The position numbers and the translations under genes were made by a program. DNA of 64,000 nucleotides, from contig PLWV01000019.1 of assembly GCA_003153155.1 (NCBI GenBank), forward strand, positions 1,137 through 65,136. Direction: 5' to 3'. The notes beneath the pieces are model-generated. The model was not told the DNA's origin, did not search any database, and worked only from the letters and a program-made list of their open reading frames with translations. Shown piece by piece: positions 20,754 to 62,450 of this stretch. Origin of the DNA: Gallionella sp. Lineage in GTDB: Bacteria; Pseudomonadota; Gammaproteobacteria; Burkholderiales; Gallionellaceae. The first letter of the stretch is position 1. Each line of letters opens with the position of its first letter.

Positions 20754-22073
20754 ATGGAACAAGAAAAGACAAAACACATCGTGCTCGGCATCACCGGCGG
20801 TATCGCGGCCTACAAGGCGGCTGAATTGTTGCGTCTGTTGATCAAGCAGGGCATGGAGGTGCAGGTCGTCATGACCGAGGCGGCTTGCCATTTCATCACG
20901 CCGACCACGATGCAGGGTCTGTCCGGCAAGCCGGTGTTCACCGACCAATGGGATGCGAGTGTGCCGAACAGTATGGCGCACATCCATCTGAGCCGTGCTG
21001 CGAATGCGATTGTGATCGTGCCCGCGAGTGCCGATTTTATTGCCAAACTGGCGAACGGACTGGCGGATGACTTGCTGTCCACCCTGTGTCTGGCGCGCAA
21101 TTGCCCGTTGATCATCGCGCCGGCGATGAATCGCGAGATGTGGCTGAATGCGGCGACGCAGCGCAACGTCGCGCAACTGATTGCCGATGGCGTGCAGGTG
21201 CTTGGCCCGGATAGCGGTGTGCAAGCCTGCGGGGAAGAAGGCATGGGACGGATGCTGGAAGCGGCTCAATTGGCGCGGGACATTGCGGCCTTCCTGAATA
21301 ACGCGCCCCTCTCCCCTACCCCTGAAGGAACTACTAGCCATTCGACTAGGCTGCCAAAAGACAGCAGCCAAGTCGCTGGTTATCTCCCCGCAAGCGGGGC
21401 GAGGGAGTCAGCTCAGCAGCCCGCCAAAAGAATGAAGGGAGTGAAAATTCTTATCACCGCCGGGCCTACCTACGAGGCGATAGACACGGTGCGCGGCATC
21501 ACCAATCGAAGCTCCGGCAAGATGGGCTATGCAATCGCGCAAGCCGCGCTGGAGCTGGGTGCGAAAGTGGTGCTGGTATCCGGGCCGACCGCGCTTGCCA
21601 AGCCGCAAGGCGTGCAATGCGTGGACGTGCAGAGTGCCGAGCAGATGTTCGAGGCTGTAAAGCAGCACGTTGGCAATTGCGATATTTTTATCGGCGTGGC
21701 AGCGGTGGCCGATTACCGTGTCGCGCAACCCAGCACACATAAAATCAAGAAGAGCGCGAACAATCTCACCTTGGAACTCGTCCCCAACCCTGACATTCTG
21801 GCGTATGTCGCTAACCTGACCAACCCGCCGTTCTGCGTGGGTTTTGCAGCCGAAAGCGAGAATCTCGCGGAATATGCCGAGCAAAAACGCCGTGCGAAAA
21901 AACTGCCCTTGCTGGTGGGCAATCTGGTGCAGCAGGCCGTCGGCAGCGACGACAACGAACTGGTGTTATTCGATGACAGCGGCAGGCAAACCCTGCCACG
22001 CGCCGATAAACTCACGCTGGCAAGGCTATTGATGCAGCGCATAGCACAACGTAACAAGGGGGTAATGAAATGA
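20754..22073 (+). CDS. coaBC: Bifunctional PPC decarboxylase/synthetase with repeat-derived linker insertion
   Basis: [60 protein letters not shown]. Confidence 0.96.
21323..21382 (+). mobile_element. 60-bp leader+hairpin element, copy a (in frame in coaBC)
   Basis: TGAAGGAACTAC-TAGCCATTCGACTAGGCTGC-CAAAAGACA-GCAGCCAAGTCGCTGGTTA, splitting a family-1 REP at CCCC^TCTCC. Confidence 0.85.
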
Positions 22074-22525
22074 AACACATTGCCGTGGATATCAAAATTC
22101 TCGACCAGCGCTTGCATGAAAACATGCCCGGTTATGCAACTGCAGGTTCAGCAGGGATCGATTTGCGCGCGTGCATCGAACACAACATGGTGATTCAACC
22201 CAAGCAGTGCGAACTCATCCCCAGCGGCATTGCCATTCATTTGGGCAACCCGGGCTATGCCGCGATGATTTTGCCGCGCTCCGGCTTGGGGCATAAGCAC
22301 GGTATCGTACTCGGCAACCTGGTCGGCCTGATTGACTCGGATTATCAAGGGCAGATTTTCGTTTCGCTGTGGAACCGCAGCCAGATACCCTTCACACTGA
22401 TGCCGATGGAGCGCATGGCGCAACTGGTGATCGTGCCAATAATGCAAGCCAGGTTTAACATCGTGGAGGAATTTCCGTTAAGCGAACGCGGTAGCGGTGG
22501 ATTCGGCAGCACTGGTAAGCATTGA
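22070..22525 (+). CDS. dut: dUTP diphosphatase
   Basis: [41 protein letters not shown]. Confidence 0.97.
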
Positions 22526-22550
22526 CGGGGCCTCTAAAATTCAGAGTTCG

Positions 22551-22638
22551 CCCAAATGCAAGGCGCGGAAAAAATTTCGCAGCGCCGCATATGCGTTATA
22601 TGTAAGCAAGGAATTTTTTCCGCAACGCAGCAGTTGGG
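22551..22638. repeat. ~88-bp imperfect palindromic element between dut and the CBS gene
   Basis: CCCAAATGC/GCAGTTGGG ends and GCGGAAAAAATT/AATTTTTTCCGC inner arms. Confidence 0.55.
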
Positions 22639-22653
22639 ATGAAATCTGGATTT

Positions 22654-23265
22654 TTAGCCGCGCGCGATCACTGCCTCGATTTCGGCAAAAGTGTGCGCTA
22701 ATTCGAAACTCTGAACCTGGGCACCCAACTGACGGGCGATTTGGGTAATAGAGAACAAACCGCACACTGCCTGCTTGCCATCCGCACCTTCAGCGACCAC
22801 CAGCACATGCTGCCTGCGGGATTTCTTCAGGCTGGCGACGATTTGCCCGACTTGGGCATTTTGCACATCCTCGATTTTCAGCACTTCCAATTCGCGTTGT
22901 GTAGTCATGACGTCACGCACCATGATGTCGGCATGAGTTCCGCCCATGTTTTGCAGGAAGTGCATCGGTTTTTCTCCCAACACATCGCTTGCCGTCAACA
23001 ACCCCGCCGCTTGATCGTTGTCATCCAGCACCAACAGCGTACGCACGCCATAACGGATCATCTTGGCATTGGCCTTATCCATCGAAGTCTTGGCACGCAC
23101 ACTCACCACCGAAACCTTGTTCAAATCTGTCATTACGCTCGTCGCCGGATCGCTCAGCTTGACCCGCTCCGGAAGTTTCTGGACCGGACGCACAAAAGAA
23201 GAACCCGCTTTCAACAGGGAAGATCGCAGTGCACTGTATTCTTTAATCAAAACTTTTCTCCTCAA
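22654..23265 (-). CDS. CBS-domain protein
   Basis: SDPATSVMTDL...M.RYGVR.LLVLD...GLLTASDVLGEKP...VRDVMT. Confidence 0.85.
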   Translation of the reverse strand: MRRKVLIKEYSALRSSLLKAGSSFVRPVQKLPERVKLSDPATSVMTDLNKVSVVSVRAKTSMDKANAKMIRYGVRTLLVLDDNDQAAGLLTASDVLGEKPMHFLQNMGGTHADIMVRDVMTTQRELEVLKIEDVQNAQVGQIVASLKKSRRQHVLVVAEGADGKQAVCGLFSITQIARQLGAQVQSFELAHTFAEIEAVIARG

Positions 23266-23279
23266 TAAATGATTGGTAA

Positions 23280-23792
23280 TTACCTATGCGCGTGTTGCAG
23301 ATAGGCCGGATTATTCTTGGGTGCCGGAAGGTAGCCGGCCAGCTCATTAAGTGCCATCGTGTAAACCTCACGCTTGAATTCGATCACGGCGGTGATGTCC
23401 AGCCAGTAATTATTCCAACGCCACGCATCAAACTCCGGATGCGAACTGGCACGCAGGCAGACATCACAATCACGACCAATCAGGCGCAACAAGAACCAGA
23501 TCTGCTTTTGTCCGCGATAACCACCGCGCGATTCACGCTTGCTCCAGCTCTGCGGAACCTCATAACGCATCCAGTCCCGGGTGCGTCCGAGTATTTTTAC
23601 ATGTTCCGGCATCAAGCCAACTTCTTCGTGCAACTCGCGATACATCGCTTGTTCCGGGGTCTCGCCATGCTGAATGCCGCCCTGCGGAAACTGCCATGCA
23701 TGCTGCCGCACCCGCTTGCCCCAAAGCACCAGATTCCTGTCATTCGTGATAATAATGCCGACATTCGGGCGGTAGCCGTCTCGGTCTATCAT
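23280..23792 (-). CDS. rppH: RNA pyrophosphohydrolase
   Basis: [45 protein letters not shown]. Confidence 0.96.
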
Positions 23793-23880
23793 TTGTCACT
23801 CTATTCGGTTAATTTCAATAGTCGGATTCTTTCACATTTCCACTTCAATGAAAAGAGAAACAACCCCCTCACCTCAATCC

Positions 23881-23939
23881 TGATGGAACTACTAGCCATT
23901 CGACTAGGCTGCAAAGAACCGCAGCCTAGTCGCTGGTTA
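23881..23939 (+). mobile_element. Leader+hairpin element, copy b (59 bp, intergenic rppH/proS)
   Basis: TGATGGAACTAC-TAGCCATT-CGACTAGGCTGC-AAAGAACC-GCAGCCTAGTCG-CTGGTTA inside a family-1 REP (ATCC^TCTCCC). Confidence 0.85.
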
Positions 23940-24084
23940 TCTCCCATAGGGAGAGGAGGCGATTGTCCCTTCCCCCTCTGAAGGGGGAGAGCGAAGCGAG
24001 GGGGCTTTAGGATGAGGGAAGACGAACCCCGAGCATTCCCTGTAAAATCGAAAACTCACAATCATAATCAGGTCGCACTCAGCC

Positions 24085-25851
24085 ATGCGCGTCTCACAAT
24101 TTTTCATCTCCACCCTGAAAGAGGCTCCCTCCGAAGCCGAACTGGTCAGCCATCGACTGATGCTGCGCGCGGGCTATATCAGGAAACTTGCCAGCGGCTT
24201 GTATACCTGGATGCCGCTCGGTTTGCGCGTGTTGCGCAAGGTGGAAAATATCGTGCGCGAAGAAATGGATCGTAGCGGCGGGATCGAACTGCTGATGCCC
24301 GCCATACAACCCGCCGAGCTGTGGCAGGAAACCGGACGCTGGGAAGTATTCGGGCCGCAGATGCTGAAAATAAAAGACCGACACGACAATCAATTCTGCT
24401 TCGGCCCCACCCATGAAGAAGTGATCACCGACATCGCGCGCCGCGAAATCCGCAGCTACCGCCAACTGCCGGTCAACTTCTACCAGATTCAAACCAAGTT
24501 TCGCGACGAGGTACGCCCGCGTTTCGGCGTGATGCGCGCGCGCGAATTCCTGATGAAGGATGCTTATTCCTTCCATGCCGATTATGCGAGTCTGGAGCAA
24601 ACCTACCAGGTCATGTATGACACATACAGCCGTATATTCACCCGCCTCGACCTCAGGTTTCGCGCCGTCGCGGCGGATACCGGCGCGATCGGCGGCAGCG
24701 GCTCGCACGAGTTTCATGTGCTGGCGGATTCGGGTGAGGATGCGTTGGCCTACTGCCCCACTTCAGACTATGCCGCCAATGTGGAACTGGCGAAAGCCGT
24801 TGCACCGAGTGCGCCGCGCGCAGCTGCCACGCAGCCCATGGAAAAGGTTGCCACCCCCGGTCAAAAGAGCATCGCAGAGGTTGCTGCTTTCTTTAATACT
24901 TCTGCTCAGAGCGTGCTCAAAACCATCGCCGTTATAGATGCGTATGGCCAGTTCGCCCTATTGCTGTTGTGCGGCGACCATCAATTGAACGAAGTCAAGG
25001 CAAGCAAGGTGTTAGGCGGCGAGTTTCGTTTCGCCACCGAAGAAGAGATTCAACGCCACATCGGATGTCGTCCCGGATACATTGGGCCCATTAAGGCACA
25101 AAAGAAAAACCAAGAAATCGATTCGCCTTCGACAATTAAAACTGTACTCTCAGAGATGGCTAGAATTCATATCATCGTGGACCGTTCTGCCGCGACTATG
25201 AGTAATTTTATCTGTGGTGCTGATGAAGACGGTTTTCACTACGCCGGGGCCAACTTCGAGCGGGACATTATTCTGGACGAGGCCAATGTACACGACATCC
25301 GCAACGTGGTCGGCGGCGACCAGTCACCGGATGGCAAAGGCATGCTGGAAATCTGTCGCGGTATCGAAGTCGGCCATATTTTCCAGTTGCGCACCAAATA
25401 TGCCGAAGCCATGAAAGCCACTTTTCTGGACGCGCAAGGTAAAGCACAAAGCATCGAAATGGGCTGCTATGGCATCGGCGTGTCGCGCATCGTTGCCGCC
25501 GCCATCGAGCAGAATTTTGATGAGCGCGGCATCATGCTGCCGACTGCGATGGCTCCGTTCCAAATCGCCATCGTACCGATCGGCATGGGCAAGAGCGAAG
25601 CGGTACGCGAGGCAGTCGAACAACTTTATGCCCAGTTGCAAACCGCCGGTATCGAAGTGTTGCTGGATGACCGCGACGAGCGTCCCGGCGTGATGTTTGC
25701 CGATATGGAGTTGATCGGCATTCCGCACCGCATCGTCATCGGTGAGCGCGGCTTGAAGGACGGCATGTTGGAGTATCAAGGACGACGCGATGCTGCCGCA
25801 CAAGCCATCCCCTTGCAAAACGCGCTGGGGCTCGTACAATCAAAGCTATGA
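24085..25851 (+). CDS. proS: Proline-tRNA ligase
   Basis: [61 protein letters not shown]. Confidence 0.97.
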
Positions 25852-26549: not shown

Positions 26550-26567
26550 TCTATTTGGCTATTTGAT

Positions 26568-27071
26568 CTATTTCTTTTTGATATAAGCCTCGACGCTTGC
26601 GCGCGTCACTTCACCCGCCTGATAGCTCACCTGCTCACCCTTGGGGTTATACAAATAGCTGACCGGCAGAACCTCTACCGCGCCTATCTGGGCAGTGATC
26701 TTGCGATTACCCATCACCACCGGATAACTGATGCCATGTGCCTGGGCAAAGTCGGCGACTTTTCCGCTCGAGCCTGAATCCATCGCAACACCGATCACCG
26801 ACAAATCCTTATCCTGATGCGCGTTATGCAAGCTGATCAGTTCGGGTATTTCGTTCAAGCACGGCGGACACCAGGTTGCCCAAAAATTCACCAGCACCCA
26901 CTTGCCACGATAATCCGACAAGCGGTGCGTTTTGCCCTGCATATCCTCCAGCGAAAAATCCGCGGCATAGCCGGCCCATGAGCAAGCTAGCAAAAGTGCG
27001 AACAGCAAGCCTGTCCTGATGAAACTACTGATAGGACTACTGATGAAACCACTGGTGAAACGACTAGCCAT
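26568..27071 (-). CDS. TlpA-family thiol:disulfide oxidoreductase (start uncertain, 5' end invaded by repeats)
   Basis: LVNFWATWCPPC..EIPEL; hydrophobic signal RTGLLFALLLACSWAGYA; the frame stays open through the upstream repeat array. Confidence 0.85.
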   Translation of the reverse strand: MASRFTSGFISSPISSFIRTGLLFALLLACSWAGYAADFSLEDMQGKTHRLSDYRGKWVLVNFWATWCPPCLNEIPELISLHNAHQDKDLSVIGVAMDSGSSGKVADFAQAHGISYPVVMGNRKITAQIGAVEVLPVSYLYNPKGEQVSYQAGEVTRASVEAYIKKK

Positions 27072-27160
27072 CCCACTAAGCAACCAGAAGACGGTTGCCA
27101 AGTGGTTGGTTATAGCCATTCGACTAAGCTGGCAAACAACGCCAGCTAAGTCGCTGGTTA
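27017..27160 (+). mobile_element. Array c of the 60-bp element family: 4 leaders + 2 hairpins (144 bp)
   Basis: TGATGAAACTAC-TGATAGGACTAC-TGATGAAACCAC-TGGTGAAACGAC, then two TAGCCA...TGGTTA hairpins, splitting GTCC^TGAGC (host family 2). Confidence 0.85.
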
Positions 27161-27295
27161 TGAGCTTCGTCGAAGGACCTGTTCTGACCCTTCGACTAGG
27201 CTTAGGACTAAAGGCCTTGTCGAAGCCCGTCCTGAGCTCTCCTGATGCTTCGAAAGGCTCAGCACAGGGTACGCAGAGCGTATCGAAGGACGAAA
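27161..27295. repeat. Cluster of GTCCTGAGC..TCGAAGG-type repeats (host family 2)
   Basis: gagcttcgtcgaagg, cccttcgactaggcttagg, ttgtcgaagcccgtcctgagc, gtatcgaaggacgaaagg. Related remnants near 30655 and 45131. Confidence 0.65.
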
Positions 27296-29832: not shown

Positions 29833-29872
29833 TCCCCCACCCTGACCCTCCCCCGCTTTGCGAGAGAGGGGA
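29833..29872. repeat. REP-like palindrome (host family 1), empty copy
   Basis: cccccaccctgaccctcccccgctttgcgagagaggggac. Confidence 0.6.
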
Positions 29873-29909
29873 CGAACGATCGCTACGCGAATTTCACTTT
29901 AAGGTTCCT

Positions 29910-30608: not shown

Positions 30609-30790
30609 CGTAGTGCGCACAAACAAAGTGCAAGACTGCACACCCATAGTCCTTGGTCAAGCTCAGGAGCGAGTTGCTGAGCTTATTATCAGAGCTTGTC
30701 TTGCGAAAAAACCGGGAAATGACCAGAGTTGAAAAAGTGCTGAACATGTACCGTTCGCCCTGTTGCTACCGGACGAACGGTGTATATAAC

Positions 30791-30910
30791 TGGTGGAACT
30801 ACTAGCCATCTGACTGATGAAACCCCTAGCCATTCCACTAGGTTGTCAAAGAACGACAACCAAGTGGCTGGTTATAGGCTGTCCAAAAACGACAGCCAAG
30901 TCATTGGTTA
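30791..30910 (+). mobile_element. Array d: one 60-bp element nested inside another (120 bp)
   Basis: Leader1-TAGCCATCTGAC-[leader2-TAGCCATTCCAC...AGTGGCTGGTTA]-TAGGCTGTC...AGTCATTGGTTA. Outer TGAC/GTCA and inner CCAC/GTGG arms match only under nesting. Confidence 0.85.
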
Positions 30911-30934
30911 TAGCTTTGAAGGACTGGCGACTGG

Positions 30935-51667: not shown

Positions 51668-51694
51668 CTGCTGCGCTTATCGTTCCCACGCTCT

Positions 51695-51811
51695 TGATGA
51701 AACACCTGATGAAACCACTAGCCATCTGACTAAGCTGCAAAAATCGCAGCAAGTCATTGGTTATAGCCATTCCACTAGGTTGTCAAAGAACGACAACCAA
51801 GTGGCTGGTTA
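51695..51811 (+). mobile_element. Array e: 2 leaders + 2 hairpins (117 bp) inside a GTTCCCACGC/GCGTGGGAAC palindrome (host family 3)
   Basis: tatcgttcccacgctct [TGATGAAACACC-TGATGAAACCAC-hairpin-hairpin] tgcgtgggaacgata. Confidence 0.85.
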
Positions 51812-51825
51812 TGCGTGGGAACGAT

Positions 51826-51851
51826 AAAAAAGCCCCTCTTGCGAGGGGCTT
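51826..51851 (-). terminator. Terminator downstream of pilA
   Basis: AAGCCCCTC-TTGC-GAGGGGCTT with a 6-A run on +. Confidence 0.8.
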
Positions 51852-51888
51852 ATACTTGCAGCACTACCCTAAGGTAGCTCAGGCAAGA

Positions 51889-52476
51889 TTAACTGCAAGA
51901 CTTAGGCAAAACGGCAGCCGGCAACAGAGTTGCAGCGGCACCGACTTTTGCTATATCTGCTGATGCTCCTATGGCTGGATTCTCGGAACCTAGAGTTGTA
52001 ACAACTCCCACAATGGTTATTGGATTGTCCGCGCTAGCATCACCATTGGCGCAAGTCCAGGAACCGCTGTTCGGGTTGTAGTACATGTGCACCTGCACAC
52101 CCGTACCTGCGTTCAAAAGTCTACTACTCACACCCGTACTCTTAAACTGCGCTACGACACTGAATGGGGATGCGGTTCCTTTGATGCCCGCGGCCGGGCC
52201 AGAGTTAGTCGACAAGCCAACCCCCATATTTGCAACATACTTGCCCTGGGTAATGGCGCTAATGCCGCTTGCGGTGTTGATTTCGAATAGACCAGAGGTT
52301 GTATATAGCTCGGTCAACGGCGTCTTTATGCCGTCCAGCAGCGTGAAGGCTTCAGCAGCTTGCGCACGGGCGGTGTAATCGCCGTAAGCAGGAATTGCTA
52401 CTGCAGCCAAGATACCGATGATCGCGACCACGATCATCAATTCGATCAAGGTAAAACCTTTTTGAATGTTTTTCAT
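51889..52476 (-). CDS. pilA: Type IVa major pilin
   Basis: Prepilin [31 protein letters not shown]; C-terminal Cys pair; lower GC than flanks. Confidence 0.93.
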
Positions 52477-52505
52477 ATTAAAGCTCCTTTTGAGTTAACT
52501 TTGTA

Positions 52506-52610
52506 TAGCCATTCGACTAGGCTGCCAAACAGCCTTGCATGTCCGATCGACTAATCTGGCAAACTACGCCAGCCAAGTCGCCGGTCAACGCCAGCCAAGT
52601 CGCTGGTTAA
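52506..52610 (+). repeat. Degenerate, rearranged copies of the hairpin element in the pilA 5' UTR
   Basis: tagccattcgactaggctgccaaacagcc...cgactaatctggcaaactacgccagccaagtcg...gccagccaagtcgctggtta. Confidence 0.75.
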
Positions 52611-52640
52611 CACACAACCTCGTGTGTTGGTGAGTATCTC

Positions 52641-52656
52641 AGCAATTGCCATGCCA
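52641..52656 (-). promoter_or_regulatory. Sigma-54 (-24/-12) promoter of pilA
   Basis: Minus strand TGGCAT-GGCAA-TTGCT matches TGGCAC-N5-TTGCW. Confidence 0.8.
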
Positions 52657-52796
52657 ATATCGCAATGCATTGTTATTGCTGAATGTATAAAAAGCACGTG
52701 AGACCACCGACACATTTTTTATATCAATATCCGTCACCCGACTGACGATTTTGGGCAATTACTTGCACTTCTCTCGTCGTATTTCGACATTTTAGC

Positions 52797-52826
52797 TATC
52801 GTTCCCACGTTCCGCGCGGGAACGAG
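52797..52826. repeat. Empty host-family-3 palindrome
   Basis: atcgttcccacgttccgcgcgggaacgag. Confidence 0.7.
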
Positions 52827-52933
52827 GTTTTTGACGCTCCGCCGGGTGCCCGGATAATAGCTTTTCATCGTCGCGAGAGATGGCGCGTTGTGTTGTTCAT
52901 GTTGCCACCGCTGAGCGAATCCGTTCCCGCGCG

Positions 52934-53050
52934 TAACCAGCCACTTGGTCGGCGTTTTTTGCCGGCCTAGTGGAATGGCTATAACCAATGACTTGCTGCG
53001 TTTTTTGCAGCTTAGTCAGATGGCTAGTGGTTTCATCAGTTGTTTCATCA
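52934..53050 (-). mobile_element. Array g: 2 leaders + 2 hairpins (117 bp) in a family-3 host, inverted relative to array e
   Basis: Minus strand atcgttcccatgctc [TGATGAAACAAC-TGATGAAACCAC-hairpin(TGAC/GTCA)-hairpin(CCAC/GTGG)] cgcgcgggaac. Confidence 0.85.
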
Positions 53051-53071
53051 GAGCATGGGAACGATGAATCA

Positions 53072-54847
53072 CTATGAATCCAGGTTGACACCCGGAATCT
53101 TGCCCAAATCCACATCGTCTATCTGTTCGGGCGCAAGAAATTGTTTGGCATAGTCGAGATAGACTTTTTCGCGCATGAAGACATCGAACAAATCGGGGTC
53201 GATATGCCCGCCCAGTTTGAACTTGCCGAGAATGGTCAGGGATTCGGTGAGGGTTTTACCTTTTTTGTAAGGTCTATCCTTGGCGGTGAGCGCCTCGAAA
53301 ATATCGGCGATGCCCATGACTCTGGCTTGCACCGACATCTGTTCGCGCGTCAGCCCGCGCGGATAGCCCTTGCCATCCATGCGTTCATGATGCCCGCCGG
53401 CATATTCGGGGACGTTTTTGAGATGTCTGGGCCAGGGCAGCGATTCCAGCATTTTGATGGTGACATCGATGTGATGGTTGATGATTTCGCGTTCCGCCGC
53501 CGTCAATGTGCCGGCGCGTATGGTGAGATTTTCGACTTCATCTTCACTGAGAAAATTGCTCGCCTTTCCATCACCATCGCGCCATTGATAGGTGGCGATC
53601 TGGCGCACACGTTGCTGCGCCTCTGCAGACATTGCCTCGCTGCCGACGTTACAGTGCCGCAGAAATTCACGGTCATCATCGAGTTGCCGGATGCGCTCCG
53701 CGTACTCGGCATGGATAGGTGTGACCGCTTCACTTTTACCCCCTCTGATGGAACTACTAGCCATCTGACTAGGCTGTCCAACAACGACAGCCAAGTCATT
53801 GGTTACCCCACCCTCCCCCTTCAAGGGTGAGGGAGTTGCCGCAATTTCGCGCAGCCCCCGCAAGGGGGACACCGATGGGTGCCCGGCAGCTTCGCTGCCA
53901 CCCTCTCGCAGCATTTCAATTTCGGCATCGCGCTTGAGCACCTCGAAACGCGTGTCCAGCAAATGAATTCGATCGAAGAGAGTATGCAGTTTGGTCGCCT
54001 TATCCACCACATGCACCGGTGTGGTGATCTTGCCGCAGTCATGCAGCAAGCCGGCGATCTTTAATTCGCGCCGATCTTTCTCGGTCATCACAAAATCTTT
54101 GAGCGGGCCTGATGTGGTGCGATTGACCGCTTCGGCCAGCATCATGGTCAGTACCGGCACGCGCTCGCAATGGCCGCCGGTATAAGGAGACTTGTCGTCT
54201 ATCGCGGTATTGATGAGTTGGATGAAGGACTCAAACAACTCTTCCAATTGATCGATGAGATGACGATTAGTCAATGCAATGGCCGCCTGCGAAGCGAGCG
54301 ATTCCAGTAACTGTTGGTCATCCCTTGAGAACGGGACGATCGCGCCGCTTTCCTGATCTTGCGCATTGATCAATTGCAACACCCCGATGACCTCATTCTC
54401 GTGGTTGCGCATCGGCACGGTCAAAAAGGACTGGGAACGATAACCGGTCTTGGCATCAAATTTTTTGGTGCCGGAAAAATCGTAGCCCTCCGCCATATAA
54501 GCATCGGGAATATTCACAGTTTCACCGCTAAGTGCCGAGTGGCTCACCACCATGGCGTGATTGGGCTTGCCAGCAGCATCGTAAAGCTGAATCGGATAAA
54601 AGGTAATCGGTACGCCGCTGGTTCCGCCCATCGCCTTATTCAGCGTATTGTTGCGCAAAATTTCAAAGCGCAACACTCGCTGCTCCTGTTCGTGCAGATA
54701 GAGCGTGCCGGCATCAGCGTGCGTAATGCGCATCGCCGCTACCAGAATGGTTTCCAGCAAGCTGTTGAGATCGCGCTGTTGAGACAGGGCAATGCCAATC
54801 TCATTGAGATCTTTGAGGCGATGCAGAAGGTTGTCAGAAGAATGCAT
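53072..54847 (-). CDS. GAF-HD-GYP c-di-GMP phosphodiesterase with repeat-derived insertion
   Basis: GAF (YRSQSFLTVPM.NH..EVIGVLQLINA), YTGGHCERV, LHDCGK, HHERMDGKGYP. Confidence 0.92.
   Translation of the reverse strand: MHSSDNLLHRLKDLNEIGIALSQQRDLNSLLETILVAAMRITHADAGTLYLHEQEQRVLRFEILRNNTLNKAMGGTSGVPITFYPIQLYDAAGKPNHAMVVSHSALSGETVNIPDAYMAEGYDFSGTKKFDAKTGYRSQSFLTVPMRNHENEVIGVLQLINAQDQESGAIVPFSRDDQQLLESLASQAAIALTNRHLIDQLEELFESFIQLINTAIDDKSPYTGGHCERVPVLTMMLAEAVNRTTSGPLKDFVMTEKDRRELKIAGLLHDCGKITTPVHVVDKATKLHTLFDRIHLLDTRFEVLKRDAEIEMLREGGSEAAGHPSVSPLRGLREIAATPSPLKGEGGVTNDLAVVVGQPSQMASSSIRGGKSEAVTPIHAEYAERIRQLDDDREFLRHCNVGSEAMSAEAQQRVRQIATYQWRDGDGKASNFLSEDEVENLTIRAGTLTAAEREIINHHIDVTIKMLESLPWPRHLKNVPEYAGGHHERMDGKGYPRGLTREQMSVQARVMGIADIFEALTAKDRPYKKGKTLTESLTILGKFKLGGHIDPDLFDVFMREKVYLDYAKQFLAPEQIDDVDLGKIPGVNLDS
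53746..53805 (+). mobile_element. 60-bp element, copy h (in frame, antisense within the HD-GYP gene)
   Basis: TGATGGAACTAC-TAGCCATCTGACTAGGCTGTC-CAACAAC-GACAGCCAAGTCATTGGTTA in a family-1 REP. Confidence 0.85.
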
Positions 54848-54947: not shown

Positions 54948-57356
54948 TTACTTGATACAAACTGCGCGTACCTGATGCATATCGGTAACGCCCTGCAGCA
55001 CCTTCTCCATGCCGTCTTGCTTCAACGTGTGCATCCCTTCGTCCAGCGCGATAGCCAATAACTCGGCAACCCGTGCATGTTCCTGAATGGCCCTCTTGAC
55101 AGGGTCGGTACCAATCAGCAATTCATGCAAGCCCACTCTCCCACGATAGCCGGTGCCGGAACATTTTTCACATCCAACCGGTCCATAGATCGTAAATTGT
55201 CCTTTGTCATCGGCAAACAACTTCCGCCACTCGGCATACAGAGCCTTCATCGCAGCAGCCGGATCTTTCTTCCAGGTCACGGTATTGACCAGTTCGGCGC
55301 TGTACTCATCCAGCATCGCTTTTATTTCATCGGCGGTTGCGGTATGCGGTTTCTTGCAATCGGCACATAAGCGTTTTGCCAAACGCTGCGCCAAAATGCC
55401 GAGCAGCGCATCGGCAAAGTTGAACGGATCCATACCCATATCCAGCAAGCGAATGATGGATTCCGGCGCGCTGTTGGTGTGCAGGGTGGCGAACACCAAG
55501 TGACCAGTCAGCGAGGCTTCGATACCGATGGACACGGTTTCCTTGTCGCGCATTTCACCGACCATAATCACGTCCGGATCGGCACGCAGAAAGGCGCGCA
55601 TGATGGTGGGAAAATCCAGCCCGGCCTTTTTGTTGATCTGCACTTGGCGCAGCCCCTTCTGGGTAATTTCCACCGGATCTTCGACGGTCCAGATCTTGGT
55701 GTCCGGCTTGTTGATGTATTTGAGGACGGAGTGCAGCGTGGTGGTTTTACCGGAACCGGTCGGACCGCACACGAAGAACAGCCCGTATGGCTTGCTGACC
55801 GTAGCTTTGACCAACTCTGAATTGCGCGCGGAGAAGCCCATCTTTTCCAATGGCAATGGCTCACCGGAGGCCAGAATACGCATCACCACATCTTCCACGC
55901 CGCCCTGCGAAGGAATGGTCGCCACACGCAGCTCGATATCCAGCGGGCCGAATTTCTTGAACTTGATCTTGCCGTCCTGCGGTTTGCGCTTCTCGGAAAT
56001 ATCCAGGTCGCACATGATCTTGATACGGGTGATCAGTGCGTTGCGATAAGTTGACGGCACTTCGATGTAGTTCATCAATGAACCGTCTTTGCGCACCCGA
56101 ATCTGCGTCTTGGCTTTGCCCGGTCCCGGTTCGATATGAATATCCGACGCGCCCATCCGGTAAGCATCTACGATGACCTTGTTGACCAGCTTGACCAATT
56201 CATTATCGGCGGCGGCGCTGACGTCCTCCTGGCTGACACCGGAGATTTCTTCTTCTTCTCCACCCAGGCTAGTCAACAAATCATCCATGGACGATTCATC
56301 GACTACCATGCCACCGCTACCATCTGAAACAGCGCCGCCACCATAAAACAAATCCAGGGTTTGCTTGAATTCGCGTTGCGAGCAAACCTTATAGACCAGC
56401 CGACTCTTGGAAAAAATGTTATTGACCACCCGCGAAGCCTGAATCCGCTCCGGATCAGTGGTCAAAATCATCAGCCCCTCCTGGGTTTCCTCGATTGGAA
56501 TCCAATGACTGCTTTCTACATACTCGCGTCTCAGGTTTTTCAACAACTCGGTAGGCTTGAGGCGATCGCTCCGGTATGGTTCGTAAGGGACTCCAAAAAA
56601 GCTGGACAGCGCCTTGCCCAAGGCGGCGACACTGACTTGAAATTCGTCTAGCAGCACCTCTTCGATGTCTATGCCCTTGCGCCGCGCGGTGCGCGTCGCC
56701 AATTCGAATTCCGCAGCAGAAAGTACCGCATCGGCAACCAGATAGTCATACTTGGTCTTGGTCGTGCTGCTTTGCTGACGCTGATGCTGGCGCAACGCCA
56801 CCGCCATGGTCTGCGCCAGTTCCTGCACGCCTTCTTCGATCATCGCCGCAAAAGGGACACCAGCCTTGTTATTGATGACCTGGATGACACCAACCAGATC
56901 GCCACTGGCTGCATCCAGAATCGGAGCGACCAGCATTTGCTTGGTACGGTATCCGGTGCGCTTGTCTACTTCCTTAAAAAAACGCAGATGCGCGCTGTAC
57001 TGCGCCAACTCTTTTTCATCGTAAACATCCTTGATGTTAAGCAGTTTTTTATGCATTGCCGCATAACCGGCAACGCTTTGCTCAGCGATGGGTAACTTGA
57101 GATCTTTGAAAGAATTGAGCCCGGTCTTGACCTTGGAAATAAGTGAGATATTGTCTTCACCCACGACATAGATGGTCAGCCGATCCGCATTGAACAGCGC
57201 GCAGATGTCCTTGCTGACCTCCAGCATGATTTCATCAACGTTACCGGTGGCGTGTATCTTATTGTTGACGTGATTGAGATTCTTGGTGAATTCGAGCCTG
57301 AGGCTCATATCACCGACATTGTTTGCTGCGCTATTGGTCGCCATTACTGTACTCAT
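54948..57356 (-). CDS. GAF-fused PilB/GspE-family secretion ATPase
   Basis: N-terminal GAF (GYRTKQMLVAPI...GVIQVINNK), Walker A GPTGSGKTTT, TVEDPVE, LRADPDVIMVGEMRD, TLHTN, Cys motifs CADC and CEKC. Confidence 0.92.
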   Translation of the reverse strand: MSTVMATNSAANNVGDMSLRLEFTKNLNHVNNKIHATGNVDEIMLEVSKDICALFNADRLTIYVVGEDNISLISKVKTGLNSFKDLKLPIAEQSVAGYAAMHKKLLNIKDVYDEKELAQYSAHLRFFKEVDKRTGYRTKQMLVAPILDAASGDLVGVIQVINNKAGVPFAAMIEEGVQELAQTMAVALRQHQRQQSSTTKTKYDYLVADAVLSAAEFELATRTARRKGIDIEEVLLDEFQVSVAALGKALSSFFGVPYEPYRSDRLKPTELLKNLRREYVESSHWIPIEETQEGLMILTTDPERIQASRVVNNIFSKSRLVYKVCSQREFKQTLDLFYGGGAVSDGSGGMVVDESSMDDLLTSLGGEEEEISGVSQEDVSAAADNELVKLVNKVIVDAYRMGASDIHIEPGPGKAKTQIRVRKDGSLMNYIEVPSTYRNALITRIKIMCDLDISEKRKPQDGKIKFKKFGPLDIELRVATIPSQGGVEDVVMRILASGEPLPLEKMGFSARNSELVKATVSKPYGLFFVCGPTGSGKTTTLHSVLKYINKPDTKIWTVEDPVEITQKGLRQVQINKKAGLDFPTIMRAFLRADPDVIMVGEMRDKETVSIGIEASLTGHLVFATLHTNSAPESIIRLLDMGMDPFNFADALLGILAQRLAKRLCADCKKPHTATADEIKAMLDEYSAELVNTVTWKKDPAAAMKALYAEWRKLFADDKGQFTIYGPVGCEKCSGTGYRGRVGLHELLIGTDPVKRAIQEHARVAELLAIALDEGMHTLKQDGMEKVLQGVTDMHQVRAVCIK

Positions 57357-57466
57357 TCCACTCCCTCGCCCGTCTCTTTAGGCTGCTGTTGTGCCGACCT
57401 CGGCATCAACCATGGTCCATATCCAACCAGAATTTTGATGTCGGGTGTGTAACTCATCGCCTACTC

Positions 57467-58231
57467 TTAAAGCTCGAATTCTTGATTGTTCAACAACATC
57501 TTGGGACTCAGCCCACGCACACAATCTTCTATCTCCTGCATGATCAACTCCATCTCACCCGGTTTGAGATGAGTGATGAATACTTCTGCATCGCGCTTAT
57601 ATTTGAGCAACTCTCCAGCGAGCATACTGGTGCACAGATGCTTGGAAAGTACCGCTAAATCCTTTTCTCTGTTTGAAAATGCCGTCTCGATGATGAGGTA
57701 ACGCAAATTCTCAATTTTGTTGACCACCTTCCATAACGCATCATTAGTGGTGGTGTCCCCGCTAAAAACCAGGCTCGCCTTACCACTGTCCAAATGATAG
57801 CCAACCGCAGGCACAACATGATTGGCGGGGACAGAGGTTATCTTGCGCCCATTCAGGACAACAGTCTCGCCCAGCTCCATCGACTGGTAACGCAGGTAAG
57901 GTTGCCGAGCATTGGGAATCTCGCTGAAATCCGGCCATATTTTCCAATTGAAAATATGTTGTTTGAGGATGTCCAGCGTCTCCTCGCTTGCATAAACAGT
58001 CAATGGGCGATCACGCATGAACCCAGCACTGTCCAACATAAATGGAATGCAGGTGATATGATCAAGGTGAGAATGGGTAACGAAAACATGATCAATCATA
58101 GCAAGTTCTGTCAGGCTGAGTTCACCCACCCCGGTACCGGCATCAATCAGCACGTCATGATCGAGCAGGAACGAAGTGGTGCGCAGATTGCCACCGATTC
58201 CACCACTGCATCCCAATACTCTGAGTTTCAT
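57467..58231 (-). CDS. Metallo-beta-lactamase-fold 3',5'-cyclic-nucleotide phosphodiesterase (class II-like)
   Basis: LRVLGCSGGIG, LIDAGTG, THSHLDHI, NHVVPAVGY, FSGDT. Confidence 0.85.
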   Translation of the reverse strand: MKLRVLGCSGGIGGNLRTTSFLLDHDVLIDAGTGVGELSLTELAMIDHVFVTHSHLDHITCIPFMLDSAGFMRDRPLTVYASEETLDILKQHIFNWKIWPDFSEIPNARQPYLRYQSMELGETVVLNGRKITSVPANHVVPAVGYHLDSGKASLVFSGDTTTNDALWKVVNKIENLRYLIIETAFSNREKDLAVLSKHLCTSMLAGELLKYKRDAEVFITHLKPGEMELIMQEIEDCVRGLSPKMLLNNQEFEL

Positions 58232-58263
58232 TTTGTCCCGTGTATCCTGATAAATTAATCGGG

Positions 58264-60486
58264 TTACTTGGTCTGGAAATCGAACACGCCATCCCAATCC
58301 GCATTCGGTGGATTTTTACGGAAGAAAGCAACGCGCTCCGCGTATTTTCCATACAGGGCAGTACCCGGCGACATGCGCTGCAAATTCATCAGTTGCAATT
58401 CTGCCTGATCCCAATCCTGCTTGCGATACAGGCGACGCACTTCATGGAACAACTTGACTTCGTCCTGAAGTGCTTTGCTCGCCTCACTGACCAATGCTAT
58501 CGGTTCGTAAATCGCCACGGGCCTATCTTTACCTTTTACCCGCACGTGGTCAAGTTCGCGATATAAAAAGTCCGTCACGAGGTTCTGGGTATTCTCACCG
58601 ACGATGATGCCCACCCCGTATTGCTTGGTGATACCTTCCAGACGTGATGCCAGGTTCACTTCATCGCCCATCACCGTGTAGGCAACACGCACTTCTGAAC
58701 CCATGTTGCCCACACTGACGCGCCCGGTATTGATGCCCACACCAACGTGAATTCCCGGCCAACCGCGTTCCTTGAAGTGTGGCTGCAATGCTTGCAAAGT
58801 CGCCTGCATCTCGATACCCGCCAGTATGGCGTTGCGGGCATGATCCCTGTCCGGCAGAGGTGCCCCCCAAAATGCCATGATGCAGTCGCCCATATACTTG
58901 TCTATCGTGCCGCGGTGTTTATAGATAACGCGCGACAAGGGGGTCAAAAACTCATTCATCAACAGGGATAATTCTTTTGGATCCAAGCCCTCTGAGATGG
59001 TGGTAAAGCCACGCACATCTGAAAACAGAATGGTCATTTCACGGCTTTCACCTACCATGGACACGCTTTCCGGATGTTTCGCCATTTCCTCAACCAGTTC
59101 GCTCGGCACATATTGCCCGAACAGTCCGGTAATCTGCCGCTTGGTACGCGACTCGACGAAGTAACCGTAAGACATATCCAAGGCGAATAACAAAGCGATC
59201 ATTAACAGACTGTTCGCCACTGGCATCAATACATTCCCGTACTGCCAAGCAACCAAACTCAGCCCTGTCGTTGTGATGAGTGTAAAAACCGAGGCGAGAA
59301 TCGCTTTGGCCGGAGTGAATAACGGCAACAAAAAGCTCAAAGCAATGCCGATCAACAACAGCCAAACCACTTCCGCACCCAGCATATAAGCAGGTCGCTC
59401 TTTCAAATTTTGATCGAGAATACCGGAAATCATGTTGGCGTGGACTTCCACCCCCGGGTAAACCTCCGACACCGGTGTGGCGCGCATATCCAACAACCCG
59501 GGAGCGGTTGTGCCCACCAGAATGATCTTGTCTTTCAGTTGTGCAGGATCAACGCGTTCGTGCAGCACATCGGTTATCGAAATATAACGAAAACTCCCCT
59601 GTCCACCGCGGTACGGCACAAAAGTTGCCACATCACTGTCGACCGGGATTTTTAGCCTGCCTCCGGCCGCATCCAGCTCCAACCACTCCAAACCGGCATA
59701 CCCGCCGGTCTTGGCCTCGGCAAAGCCGGGTAACAATTTGGTTTGGCCCAGCAAGGTGCGAACCATCGCAAGAGATAAAGACTCATAATATGCGCCGTCG
59801 TATTCTACGAGCATGGGCACACGGCGTACCCGGCCATCAAAGTCCACCAAAGGATTGAAGTGACCCGCGCTGGCGGCGGCTTGTTGCAACTCGGGGAGAT
59901 TGGCCCCGTAGCCATTCCAAGTTGTGAACTCTACCGAATGTCCCTTGAAGGAGCCAGATGGGAAGGTCGGCTCGGGAAGCATCCCGGAAGCACGCTGGTC
60001 TTTTTGATTGGTTAGATAATACCCCAACACCACATTGCGATTTTTGATCTTGCTGGCAAACAGGTTGTCGTACTCGAGTTGCGGTCGGATTTGGCTGAGC
60101 GTCGATTGAAACGACATATCGCCCTTGAGTTGATTTTGCCCGAGCTTCTGCAACACCTTTAGCCCTGAACTCTCATCCCTCTCGGCAAAAACGACGTCAA
60201 AGCCCACCACCGCGACGCCATATTTATCGAACAGCTTGTCCATCAACATGGCCAAGCGGTCCCGCCCCCATGGCCAGCGCCCTTCTTCCTTCAGGCTTTT
60301 TTCGTCTATATCGATGATAACGATACGATCATCCAGCGTGCGCGGCATGGTCAACCGCAACCGATAATCGTGAATAATGGAAGACAGCTGCTCGACAAAA
60401 TCCAGTCTGTAAAAACGGGCGGCGCTACCGACAAAAAACAAGACTATCAGCAGCCCAAGCCCAATCAAGATTGCGTTTTTTTTCAC
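58264..60486 (-). CDS. CHASE2-domain class III adenylate/guanylate cyclase
   Basis: DIDEKSL..EGRWPW.R (CHASE2); FSDVRGFT, DKYMGDCIMAFW, YTVMGDEVNLASRLE. The K...T pattern suggests ATP specificity. Confidence 0.93.
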   Translation of the reverse strand: MKKNAILIGLGLLIVLFFVGSAARFYRLDFVEQLSSIIHDYRLRLTMPRTLDDRIVIIDIDEKSLKEEGRWPWGRDRLAMLMDKLFDKYGVAVVGFDVVFAERDESSGLKVLQKLGQNQLKGDMSFQSTLSQIRPQLEYDNLFASKIKNRNVVLGYYLTNQKDQRASGMLPEPTFPSGSFKGHSVEFTTWNGYGANLPELQQAAASAGHFNPLVDFDGRVRRVPMLVEYDGAYYESLSLAMVRTLLGQTKLLPGFAEAKTGGYAGLEWLELDAAGGRLKIPVDSDVATFVPYRGGQGSFRYISITDVLHERVDPAQLKDKIILVGTTAPGLLDMRATPVSEVYPGVEVHANMISGILDQNLKERPAYMLGAEVVWLLLIGIALSFLLPLFTPAKAILASVFTLITTTGLSLVAWQYGNVLMPVANSLLMIALLFALDMSYGYFVESRTKRQITGLFGQYVPSELVEEMAKHPESVSMVGESREMTILFSDVRGFTTISEGLDPKELSLLMNEFLTPLSRVIYKHRGTIDKYMGDCIMAFWGAPLPDRDHARNAILAGIEMQATLQALQPHFKERGWPGIHVGVGINTGRVSVGNMGSEVRVAYTVMGDEVNLASRLEGITKQYGVGIIVGENTQNLVTDFLYRELDHVRVKGKDRPVAIYEPIALVSEASKALQDEVKLFHEVRRLYRKQDWDQAELQLMNLQRMSPGTALYGKYAERVAFFRKNPPNADWDGVFDFQTK

Positions 60487-60498
60487 GACGCTTAACTA

Positions 60499-60607
60499 GA
60501 GGACGGAAGACAGAGGACGGAGGACGGATTTTGTGTGCCGCCACACGGCACGTTCATTGAAGACGCGGCGCAGTCGCGACAACACCTCTGTCTTCTGTCC
60601 TCTGTCC
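60499..60607. repeat. Inverted pair of heptamer tandem repeats (GAGGACG / CTGTCCT)
   Basis: gaggacg-gaagaca-gaggacg-gaggacg against ctctgtc-ttctgtc-ctctgtc. Confidence 0.75.
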
Positions 60608-60611
60608 ACCG

Positions 60612-61463
60612 CTATCCCTTGAAATAGAATTCCATCTTGACCCCAGCCAACTCAATCACATCGTGCTCATTCAGCTGATGCGCCTGATTAGTCAGTGCCT
60701 GACCATTCACCAACGGGAAATTTTCCCCTTCGACATGGGTGATGAAGAAACCCTGCGGACGACGGGTCAGTACTGCCACCTGCATGCCCGGCTTACCTAA
60801 AGTGGTGAGGTTTTTTACCAACTCGAGTTCCTTCCCGGCATTAGGCCCAGTCAAAACTTGCACCACAGCGACCTGTTTTGGAGCACCAGCTTGCGGAGCA
60901 GCCGCAGAAGCAGAAACAGCTGGCTTTGCCGGCTGTGCTGGCTTTGCTGGCGCAGCAGCTTGGGCAGGAGCAGCCGGAACCGTCGGCTGGTGCGCTTCGA
61001 ACTTGCCGGTCATTTCTACCGCCTCTTCATGTGTCGGTTTAATACCGGCTTGCGTTTGCATAAAACCGTGCATCTCCGCCGGTTTGTTCGCAGTTGGGGC
61101 TGGAGTCGCCTGCTTAACGGGCGCACGCAGAACCATAGTCTTTTCAAAGTCAGCCGGACTGGTTTGGGTGACTTGGTCGTTGATGTATTTCAGCTTGTAT
61201 TTGCCGATTTCGATTACATCATTGTTTTGCAGGAAGTGCTTTTTAGTCGGTTTCCCATTCACTTCCAGCCCGTTGGTACTATCCATGTCCTCGAGAAAGG
61301 AATCGTGCAGGATGGTGACGATCGCAGCATGCTCACCGCTCACCGCCAAGTTGTCGATGGCGATGTCGTTGTGTGCCTTGCGCCCGATGGTCATGCGCTC
61401 TTTGTTAAGGGGATATTCTTTAATTATCGCCCCATCCATGCTGAGTATCAATTTTGCAGCCAT
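60612..61463 (-). CDS. Double FHA-domain protein
   Basis: TIGRKAHNDI.I...VSGEHA...DMDSTNG, Ala/Pro linker, second FHA-like domain. Confidence 0.9.
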   Translation of the reverse strand: MAAKLILSMDGAIIKEYPLNKERMTIGRKAHNDIAIDNLAVSGEHAAIVTILHDSFLEDMDSTNGLEVNGKPTKKHFLQNNDVIEIGKYKLKYINDQVTQTSPADFEKTMVLRAPVKQATPAPTANKPAEMHGFMQTQAGIKPTHEEAVEMTGKFEAHQPTVPAAPAQAAAPAKPAQPAKPAVSASAAAPQAGAPKQVAVVQVLTGPNAGKELELVKNLTTLGKPGMQVAVLTRRPQGFFITHVEGENFPLVNGQALTNQAHQLNEHDVIELAGVKMEFYFKG

Positions 61464-61484
61464 AGTCGTAACCCTCGTACTAAA

Positions 61485-62450
61485 TTATTTCTCAAACCAA
61501 CTGAGCAGTTTAGCCGGCCAACCACGCGGCACGGCAAATTTGCCCTTTACCTTCACCAGTATCACCGAAACATTATCGCGGCCGCCATTATCGTTCGCCA
61601 TCTGTATCAACTGACTTGCCGCAAGCGGCAAATTACTCTGCAACGCATAAAGCGTGGACTGAATATCCTCATCCTCCACCATGTCGTTCAAACCGTCCGA
61701 ACACAGCAGGTAAATATCCCCGAGCAACACGTCATACACATGAATTTCTGCCTCAACATCGGCATCAATCCCGACCGCGCGCGTCACCAAATTTTTGTTC
61801 TTGGACAAGCGCGCATCTTCAACGCTGATCATTCCCCTATCAATCTGCTCCTGTAGCAGGGAATGATCTCGGGTGATCGTTTCCAGCACTTCGCCGCGCA
61901 ATCGGTACATGCGCGAATCACCCACATGTCCAACCGCCACGCGATTATCATAAAACAGTCCGGAGACGATGGTCGTTCCCATCCCGGCATACTGCGGCTG
62001 ACTTTGCGCAGCATGAAAAATAGAGGCATTGGCCTTCTGAATGTTGTCGCGCAACAGCGACACGCCCAGCTCCTCGCCGTTTTTCAGCCCTCTCCTCAAT
62101 CCTCCCCCCAAGGGGGATGAGGCGATCGTCCTTTCCCCCTCGGGGGAAAGGTTATAACCAGCGACTTGGCTATCGTCCTTTGATAGCTTGGTCGAATGGC
62201 TAGTAGTTTTATCAGGATGAGGGTATACGCGTTCCACCGGGCTGGCGTTCAGCAAACGGTGACTGACTTCCGTCACGACCACCGAAACAGCAATGCCGCT
62301 AGCCACCTCGCCCGCATTGTACCCCCCCATGCCGTCAGCCAACACCACCAAGCCACAGGCAGGCTCACACGCCACACTATCCTCATTGTGCGAGCGCACC
62401 ATGCCGGGGTGGGTCTGGCTGAATATTTCCAACGCCTCCGTAATCTTCAT
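61485..62450 (-). CDS. PP2C-family Ser/Thr phosphatase with repeat-derived insertion
   Basis: THPGMVRSHNED, LADGMGGYNAGEVAS, GMGTT, HVGDSR.Y, LCSDGL, GGRDNVS. Confidence 0.93.
   Translation of the reverse strand: MKITEALEIFSQTHPGMVRSHNEDSVACEPACGLVVLADGMGGYNAGEVASGIAVSVVVTEVSHRLLNASPVERVYPHPDKTTSHSTKLSKDDSQVAGYNLSPEGERTIASSPLGGGLRRGLKNGEELGVSLLRDNIQKANASIFHAAQSQPQYAGMGTTIVSGLFYDNRVAVGHVGDSRMYRLRGEVLETITRDHSLLQEQIDRGMISVEDARLSKNKNLVTRAVGIDADVEAEIHVYDVLLGDIYLLCSDGLNDMVEDEDIQSTLYALQSNLPLAASQLIQMANDNGGRDNVSVILVKVKGKFAVPRGWPAKLLSWFEK
62155..62214 (-). mobile_element. 60-bp element, copy i (in frame in PP2C)
   Basis: TGATAAAACTAC-TAGCCATTCGACCAAGCTATC-AAAGGAC-GATAGCCAAGTCGCTGGTTA, splitting ATCC^TAACC; encodes DKTTSHSTKLSKDDSQVAGY. 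Confidence 0.85.

Follow-up and report, generated by a model that had tools for sequence, protein, structure and literature searches.

A window of 64,000 nt from contig PLWV01000019.1 of the Gallionella sp. assembly GCA_003153155.1 carries repeated copies of a 60-nt hairpin unit, most of them inside repeats of other families. We interpret this unit as a non-autonomous mobile element that is restricted to the Gallionellaceae, is built of modules joined 5' of a T (N|T junctions), lands mostly in repeats and is moved as single-stranded DNA (ssDNA) by a trans-acting enzyme of the HUH/Y1 class, a reading to which we give a probability of about 0.7. A profile made from four window copies and run with nhmmer (E<1e-5) over the 2.75-Mb, 30-contig assembly returned 248 matches that merge into about 208 arrays, and a consensus was derived from 154 full copies. 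The unit consists of a 12-nt leader, TGATGAAACTAC, followed by an imperfect hairpin of exactly 48 nt (TAGCCA...TGGTTA). In consensus numbering C1 T2 is followed by GATGAAACTAC up to position 13 and then by T14 AGCCA...TGGTT A61 and T62, locus coordinates running from C1 (of the CT) to T62.

The single hairpin, at positions 14-61, keeps 18 pairs and three conserved irregularities, a G16.T59 pair, a 2x1 internal loop and an A27.A49 mismatch. Compensatory changes are seen at seven pairs (22/54, 23/53 and 29-33/43-47), and the upper stem is variable yet paired, with 50 different barcodes among 133 distinct copies and a pairing of 88% as against 63% in shuffled sequences. These features together establish that it is the structure of the hairpin, not just its sequence, that is kept, and that the hairpin is under selection. 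The element begins TGATG... and ends ...GGTTA, with neither terminal inverted repeats in the consensus nor a target-site duplication when empty and filled sites are compared. The tetranucleotide 5' of the 48-nt hairpin is CTAC on the top strand, GTAG lying 3' of the hairpin on the bottom strand. Identity with a known RNA family was rejected, as Rfam 15 gave nothing at the gathering threshold across the whole window and, at E<=1 between 21250 and 31000, only a chance hit to a miRNA model.

The boundaries of the unit are fixed by comparison with uninterrupted sites. In the coaBC linker an orthologue carrying only a repetitive extragenic palindrome (REP) reads ...TTCCCCCCTCTCCCCGCAGG (G019; L119), whereas the linker of our own genome reads ...CTACCCCT[GAAGG...GGTTAT]CTCCCCGCAAG, an exact 60-nt gain at CCCC|T without duplication; a second exact 60-nt insertion interrupts the repeat sequence GAGCTTT|TGGCC (family 4, below). 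Since the base before GATG and the last base of the unit are both T, the insertion may just as well be described as C|T with T2...A61 as the inserted piece, and in this register the leader is exactly 12 nt and the hairpin exactly 48 nt from foot to foot. All module boundaries (flank|leader, leader|leader, leader|hairpin, hairpin|hairpin and hairpin|flank) are then N|T, as in C|TGATG, TAC|TAGCCA, GGTTA|TAGCCA and GAC|TAGG. This explains how leader-leader-hairpin-hairpin arrays, Russian-doll copies and the nested locus d of the window (Table 1) could have arisen by new copies entering the C|T sites of residents. Among 99 simple insertions the target dinucleotide is CT in 79, TT in 19 and AT in one, so that the pyrimidine dinucleotide proposed in the initial annotation is real; set beside REP-type breakage and joining at C|T, these 79 C|T and 19 T|T junctions are seen as junctions in sequence, not as chemistry. 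Only the last two target bases are fixed, the sequence upstream of the junction being pyrimidine-rich and the base after it rarely T.

Within the Gallionellaceae, Gallionella-type iron oxidisers, 85 of 151 genomes and 14 of 18 genera carry the element pattern, and 16 further families of the order lack it; public matches fall in metagenome-assembled genomes (MAGs) of Gallionella, Ferrigenium, Sideroxyarcus and Sideroxydans. The genome described here has the highest count, with 125 exact pattern matches, the next having 53 and 47.

Landing in other repeats

Empty sites (22 + 22 nt) were rebuilt for the 99 simple insertions, and a paralogue was accepted where the site occurs uninterrupted elsewhere with at least 80% identity over at least 24 nt spanning the junction. 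At least one such paralogue exists for 79 of the 99 (at least three for 64, at least ten for 39), compared with 66 of 1000 random CT sites (6.6%), 199 of 1000 YT sites outside all open reading frames (ORFs) of at least 100 codons (19.9%) and 272 of 1200 intergenic sites matching CYHYT|V (22.7%; odds ratio 13.5, p = 3e-30). The predominance of landing in host repeats, first claimed from the window, therefore holds genome-wide and far beyond chance, and the motif CYHYT|V by itself is rejected as the source of the bias (22.7% against 80%). The other 20 insertions are in unique sequence.

The initial annotation had named three unrelated palindromic host families. That the hosts are dispersed repeats was correct, but there are at least eight unrelated families, several of them not palindromes, and the element is also host to itself. 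Family 1 comprises REPs of the CCCTC type (CCCTC..GAGGG), family 2 is GTTCGCCCTGAGC..GTCGAAGGG, family 3 is the hairpin GTTCCCACGC, whose arms double as the ends of a MITE (miniature inverted-repeat transposable element) of ~125 bp, and family 5 is ATTCCGGC..GCCGGAAT, a palindrome like Neisseria dRS3. Family 4 is a 27-nt mini hairpin element, GCCGAAAAACTTTTGGCCGGGCACCCG, with the stem GCCGAAA/TTTTGGC and 85 intact copies, which places it among the smallest apparently mobile units known to us. Family 6 is a dispersed intergenic repeat of ~100 nt, GGGAACCTCTAAAAATCCACATTTCATCCCAACT|GCTGCGTTGCGTAAAAAATTTCTTGCTTACATAT..., with 33 copies genome-wide, and families 7 and 8 are dispersed repeats that are not palindromic. 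Family 4 and the 60-nt element nest reciprocally, 26 family-4 copies lying in the 60-nt hairpin loop and at least 13 60-nt elements lying inside family 4, where one site, CTTT|TGG, is used repeatedly. In family 6, 17 of the 33 copies are occupied at the identical CCCAAC|T by at least five array types. Separately from its role as host, family 4 has at least 14 copies in frame in genes, encoding ..AEELLAGHP.. and usually followed by NNNGA, and it has left a degenerate trace in the window (~53872-53900, minus strand). The window copy of family 6 (~22560-22657, minus strand) is empty, and this family has no Rfam match.

We infer that the repeat bias is a mixture of a real site preference and the survival of harmless insertions, the preference being indicated by the reuse of the same single CT within a host family and by the correlation of hairpin-foot variants with target type. 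Selection instead of targeting could yield part of the enrichment. Survival as the whole explanation is improbable: insertion would then occur at any YT, with purifying selection in a compact genome (~90% long ORFs) sparing the copies in repeats and protein linkers. The minimal target motif, the confinement of in-gene copies to linkers, loops and three stop-free frames and the weak dependence on hairpins would all suit such a process, which nevertheless leaves unexplained why intergenic and motif-matched controls reach just 20-23% when 80% is observed, why one CT among several is reused in each host (CCCAAC|T in family 6, CTTT|TGG in family 4) and why element variants have their own target types.

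A further proposal of the initial annotation was that landing is guided by structure, what the machinery recognises being any extruded hairpin or cruciform, whatever its sequence, together with a pyrimidine dinucleotide. Families 1-5 and several single sites are indeed hairpins, and some insertions lie exactly at an apex, e.g. AAAAGCACGCC|TAGGCGTGCTTTT. When enrichment near hairpins was assessed genome-wide and the cut mapped relative to host stems, 34% of sites and 24% of controls had a hairpin of nine or more pairs no farther than 5 nt from the junction (p = 0.03), a slight excess due almost entirely to family 1, and junctions favoured the 5' foot or 5' arm over the 3' side by 40 to 10 (controls, 401 to 305). 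However, stems of at least ten pairs are not enriched near junctions (17% against 14.5% in controls), mean folding energies barely differ (-7.5 kcal/mol for sites and -6.5 for controls), and families 6, 7 and 8 and most sites outside the named families have no strong hairpin. Hosts of families 6, 7 and 8 show that a palindrome is not required. Generic hairpin targeting was also rejected by 60-nt folding with a test of spanning pairs, which gave no difference from controls. The dependence on structure is therefore weak, and its role as the guiding principle highly improbable.

The remaining question is whether the element entered each host separately. At the coaBC linker, 29 orthologues from the same genus include 17 with the ancestral 24 nt, three with the REP only and three with the REP plus the element, the last showing two clearly different insertion positions and two reading frames. 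These three states establish that at coaBC the element entered a repeat already in place. In the linker of the HD-GYP gene that holds copy h several relatives likewise carry REPs without the element, while for the PP2C loop that holds copy i no relative has the REP alone, a 48-nt loop being present in all but three of 28 orthologues. Both the PP2C loop and the HD-GYP linker are recurrent landing sites; other REP-type in-frame insertions have been gained there independently in other congeners (L156, L178, L179, L181, L198). Genome-wide, the occupants of families 1, 2 and 4 carry many different barcodes and an identical 54-nt variant is found in families 1, 2, 5 and 8, which argues for independent events.

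Other occupants are closely alike. Arrays e and g of the window and two other family-3 copies (C16:295,3xx and C16:133,6xx) have a common odd first leader, TGATGAAACAC, and arrays e and g also a common first shortened hairpin, while a third family-3 copy matches these two arrays in architecture as well as in leader; four of five simple family-6 occupants are nearly identical in barcode, and two family-2 pairs are identical including their flanks. Some host-plus-element composites have clearly been copied as units, as these cases indicate, and arrays e and g are probably among them, so that the movement of composites as single units, which had been named as an outcome that would undo the initial annotation, applies in part. 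Extended to the whole family, it would mean one or a few entries of the element into each host family, followed by the spread of the composite, in family 3 with the arms acting as terminal inverted repeats, targeting being mostly apparent. The correlation of stem-base variants with host family and the double role of the family-3 arms as MITE ends would fit this general form, which we nonetheless regard as unlikely given the two insertion points and the REP-only state at one orthologous site in coaBC, the barcode diversity within families 1, 2 and 4, the one 54-nt variant in four unrelated hosts, the range of occupant architectures in family 6 and the insertions in unique sequence.

Mode of movement and candidate enzymes

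Single-strand HUH transposition is the best-supported model for how the element may move. The E. coli transposase TnpAREP works on ssDNA and depends on a hairpin whose stem holds a mismatch; it cleaves at C|T (TGCC|TGAT, GGCC|TACA) and forms tandem units by strand transfer (PMC3333891), and it is the match to these properties of the junctions 5' of T, the conserved mismatches, the lack of duplication and the modular arrays that favours the model. The element would move as ssDNA, its mismatched hairpin would be recognised by a trans-acting HUH/Y1 enzyme, either IS200-like or like the REP-associated tyrosine transposases (RAYTs), and this putative enzyme would cut and rejoin 5' of T. Across 25 genomes of the genus the number of Y1 genes per genome rises with element copy number (rho 0.63, p = 0.0008).

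Several points weigh against this reading, in addition to the composites copied as units and the share of the enrichment that selection could provide. The Y1 correlation may reflect just the overall load of mobile DNA. The search for a cognate gene was negative: the element flanks none of this genome's three Y1 genes, and the 165 kb of 40 Y1 loci in relatives contained only four element matches, with no gene bracketed by them. Several copy-rich genomes lack the IS200-like Y1 type. The head of the hairpin is CTAC, not the 5' GTAG of RAYT-type REPs, and at the right end the junction would read A|T instead of C|T. IS200/IS605 elements have a lagging-strand bias; for the element none was detected relative to the sign of the GC skew (22/45 against 21/44), replication direction being approximate over 30 contigs.

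Individual candidates were rejected in turn. Orthologues of the IS200-like Y1 gene at C3:6889-7629 are lacking from several genomes rich in copies, and not one of them lies within 1.5 kb of an element. The 60 nt just upstream of this gene (G000:C3:6820-6880, minus strand) have element-like ends, TTGATGAAGG...AAGCGCTGGTTAT, around an unrelated interior, and could be a divergent relative or a chance resemblance. Two canonical RAYTs, G000:C19:91047-91604 and G000:C9:168858-169406, are each flanked by their own GTAG-headed REPs of the GTAGGGTGG type (GTAGGGTGGATAAGCG.. and GTAGGGTGGGCACG.., respectively). In one relative (G014; L255) a GTAG REP has received a leaderless hairpin unit at a distance of 126 nt from a Y1 gene. 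No recurrent candidate emerged among genes that have an array on each side.

Genes for DUF559 nucleases were rejected as drivers of the element, being flanked by REPs of the family-1 type, one of which carries a copy, and not by the element. A DUF559 (Vsr-like nuclease) coding segment at G000:C5:18610-19130, bracketed by inverted family-1-type REPs, lies within a 900-codon open frame that runs into a MetG-like C-terminal tRNA-binding domain, and a second DUF559 gene (C8:25359-25673) has family-1 REPs on its flanks, one holding a 60-nt element. The family-1 host repeats may have a nuclease driver of their own.

Among the 99 simple insertions a three-base variant at the hairpin foot tracks the target class, TCG/CGC being found mostly at YCT in REPs, TCC/GGC with TTT|GG and ACT|GC, and CTG/CAT with ACT|GC. 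IS608 uses guide sequences, which this correlation recalls, and the association could be a guide-like effect or the result of shared descent. In its most specific form the model would make the element a minimal substrate of a RAYT-like HUH enzyme, transposing as 60-nt or 48-nt ssDNA with the foot variants guiding landing as in IS608. This version is quite unlikely; if it were true, the family would provide the first direct demonstration of REP-like hairpins moving as discrete units, and a DNA insertion system of just 60 nt that is re-targetable by nature, leaves no scar and keeps the frame.

Copies within genes and relation to known elements

The module lengths are all multiples of three (12, 48, 60 and 27 nt, with variants of 54, 72 and 87) and three of the six reading frames are stop-free, properties that account for persistence in protein linkers. 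By a codon-usage test, in which one and the same frame had to score best for coding on either flank of an array, at least 27 of the 208 arrays (13%) are intragenic and in frame, three of them in the window (copies a, h and i). Thirteen encode a peptide reading ..TTSHST..QVAGY, ten ..LLMEPLAI..KSLVM and four, antisense, ..ITSDLA..MASS... In-gene copies are confined to linkers and loops, as well as to the three stop-free frames. Each of the three window cases has Pfam domains on its flanks: in CoaBC the Flavoprotein (26-194) and DFP (246-424) domains enclose copy a, an HD-GYP domain is split into its two halves by copy h, and copy i occupies a PP2C surface loop. The element consequently adds loops of ~20 residues to annotated proteins, and its copies can be mistaken for gene fusions or, in another frame, for stop codons.

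The closest comparison is with REPs, their mosaic clusters (bacterial interspersed mosaic elements, BIMEs) and RAYTs, which share with the element short abundant hairpins with conserved stem mismatches, tandem or mosaic arrays and the lack of target duplication, and whose TnpAREP cuts in vitro at TGCC|TGAT and GGCC|TACA, sites similar to C|TGATG and AAC|TAC|TAG in the element (PMC3333891). However, a REPtron is defined by an imperfect palindrome of 20-40 nt with a 5' GTAG (or CGTC), by a RAYT gene flanked by the cognate repeats and by an extragenic location, whereas the element has a 48-nt hairpin with a 12-nt leader and a 5' CTAC, flanks no RAYT gene and has the in-frame arrays described above. 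It also differs in its clean single-unit insertions into unrelated sequences, of which, to our knowledge, there is no demonstration for REPs.

REPs are known hot spots for the insertion sequences (ISs) ISPpu9, ISPpu10, ISPa11, ISPsy8, ISRm19/22 and IS1397 (PMC1525189, PMC12288879). Like these, the element prefers to land in other dispersed palindromic repeats, but they are autonomous, 1-2 kb long, encode their own IS110- or IS3-family transposase and are each specific for one REP family, whereas the element is a 60-nt non-coding unit with at least eight host families and itself as host.

The Rickettsia palindromic elements (RPEs) are selfish palindromes found in frame in many unrelated housekeeping genes, where they encode a conserved peptide and do not destroy the protein (PMC10969869). 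The element resembles them in its 27 in-frame genic copies, which encode conserved peptides in three reading frames. RPEs, though, are ~100-150 bp long, form ten families and belong to obligate intracellular alphaproteobacteria, whereas the element is 60 nt long and confined to the Gallionellaceae, a distinction drawn on unit length and taxonomic range. For RPEs we know of no report that junctions follow a C|T rule, that modules of 12 and 48 nt exist or that copies nest in other repeats.

Very small nested mobile repeats also occur in cyanobacteria. The small dispersed repeats (SDRs) of Nostoc and other members of that phylum, attributed to Elhai and colleagues (2008, in Genome Research), are reportedly 21-27 nt long and mutually nested, without target duplication and with a mobilising enzyme said to be unknown. 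The 27-nt family-4 element is of SDR size, although SDRs belong to another phylum and have other sequences, and the 60-nt element is larger and composed of leader and hairpin modules. With IS200/IS605 elements and palindrome-associated transposable elements (PATEs) it shares ends that are not inverted repeats, the lack of target duplication, a short fixed adjoining sequence and one-strand hairpin recognition; these, however, have subterminal hairpins at both ends, a 4-5-nt target 5' of the left end and a lagging-strand bias, whereas in the element a single hairpin and a target of 2 nt are seen and no strand bias was detectable. From a classical MITE both terminal inverted repeats and a target-site duplication would be expected, and the element has neither.

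We found no description of this element in Gallionella in the literature. Its design is new within a known kind of element, REPs as landing sites of ISs, in-frame palindromes in Rickettsia and nested repeats in cyanobacteria being known already. Since clean insertions of REP-like repeats are seldom seen, the way in which these repeats spread has long been an open problem, and this family supplies many such events, in the form of exact 60-nt gains at C|T, an orthologous series, nested self-insertions and module-level variants. With the cut points fixed at both hairpin feet, direct tests of candidate enzymes can be made on oligonucleotides of 60 nt. In addition, the family reveals how selfish DNA forms a layered ecology, repeats living inside repeats inside genes, in a genome that is small and free-living, and it reveals a colonisation of protein linkers in a free-living chemolithotroph as by RPEs in Rickettsia. 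In practical terms the repeats inflate and fragment Gallionellaceae MAGs.

Loci in the window

All eight loci of the initial annotation were recovered in place by repeat finding and direct reading, and a ninth, degenerate array was added (Table 1). The host assignments also stood, copies a, b, h and i splitting family 1, array c family 2 and arrays e and g family 3, as did the empty host copies reported near 16486, 29833 and 52797. Locus d adjoins a family-2-like remnant, as described, and is in addition a case of one copy nested in the stem of another.

Table 1. Arrays of the 60-nt element and empty host repeats in the 64,000-nt window
Feature	Position	Strand	Structure and host	Flanks or sequence	Gene context
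Empty family-1 host	16486-16521	+		CCCTCACCCCAACCCTCTCCCAGGGGGAGAGGG	
Copy a	21322-21383	+	Single 60-nt element in family-1 REP	CCCCTCTCCCCTACCC|..|CTCCCCGCAAGCGGGGCGAGGGAG	CoaC-CoaB linker of coaBC, ORF 20697-22073; in frame
Copy b	23880-23940	+	Single element, one base short, in family-1 REP	CCCCCTCACCTCAATC|..|CTCCCATAGGGAGAGGAGG	
Array c	27016-27161	+	Four 12-nt leaders and two 48-nt hairpins, at GTCC|TGAGC of family-2 repeat	GCCTGTC left, GAGCTTCGTCGAAGGAC right	
Empty family-1 host	29834-29873	+			
Locus d	30790-30911	+	Element nested in 5' arm (stem) of another at GAC|TAGG	3' side, family-2-like remnant AGCTTTGAAGGAC	
Array e	51694-51812	+	Two leaders and two hairpins in loop of family-3 hairpin; arms 51680-51691 and 51813-51823	TCGTTCCCACGC..GCGTGGGAACG	
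Ninth array	52504-52616	+	Degenerate, truncated; no recognised host repeat		
Empty family-3 hairpin	52798-52826	+		TCGTTCCCACG TTCCG CGCGGGAACGA	
Array g	52933-53051	-	Architecture as array e, in second family-3 hairpin, inverted relative to e	TCGTTCCCATGC..GCGCGGGAACG	
Copy h	53745-53806	+	Single element in family-1 REP		GAF/HD-GYP gene, ORF 53072-54847, minus strand; in frame, antisense reading
Copy i	62154-62215	-	Single element in double family-1 REP		PP2C phosphatase gene, ORF 61485-62450, minus strand; in frame, sense

Arrays e and g each fill the loop of a perfect family-3 hairpin, TCGTTCCCACGC...GCGTGGGAACGA. With their family-3 arms (51680-53064) they form near-identical inverted composites around a pilA-like gene and the empty family-3 hairpin, a pair that could mediate inversion or mark a local duplication.

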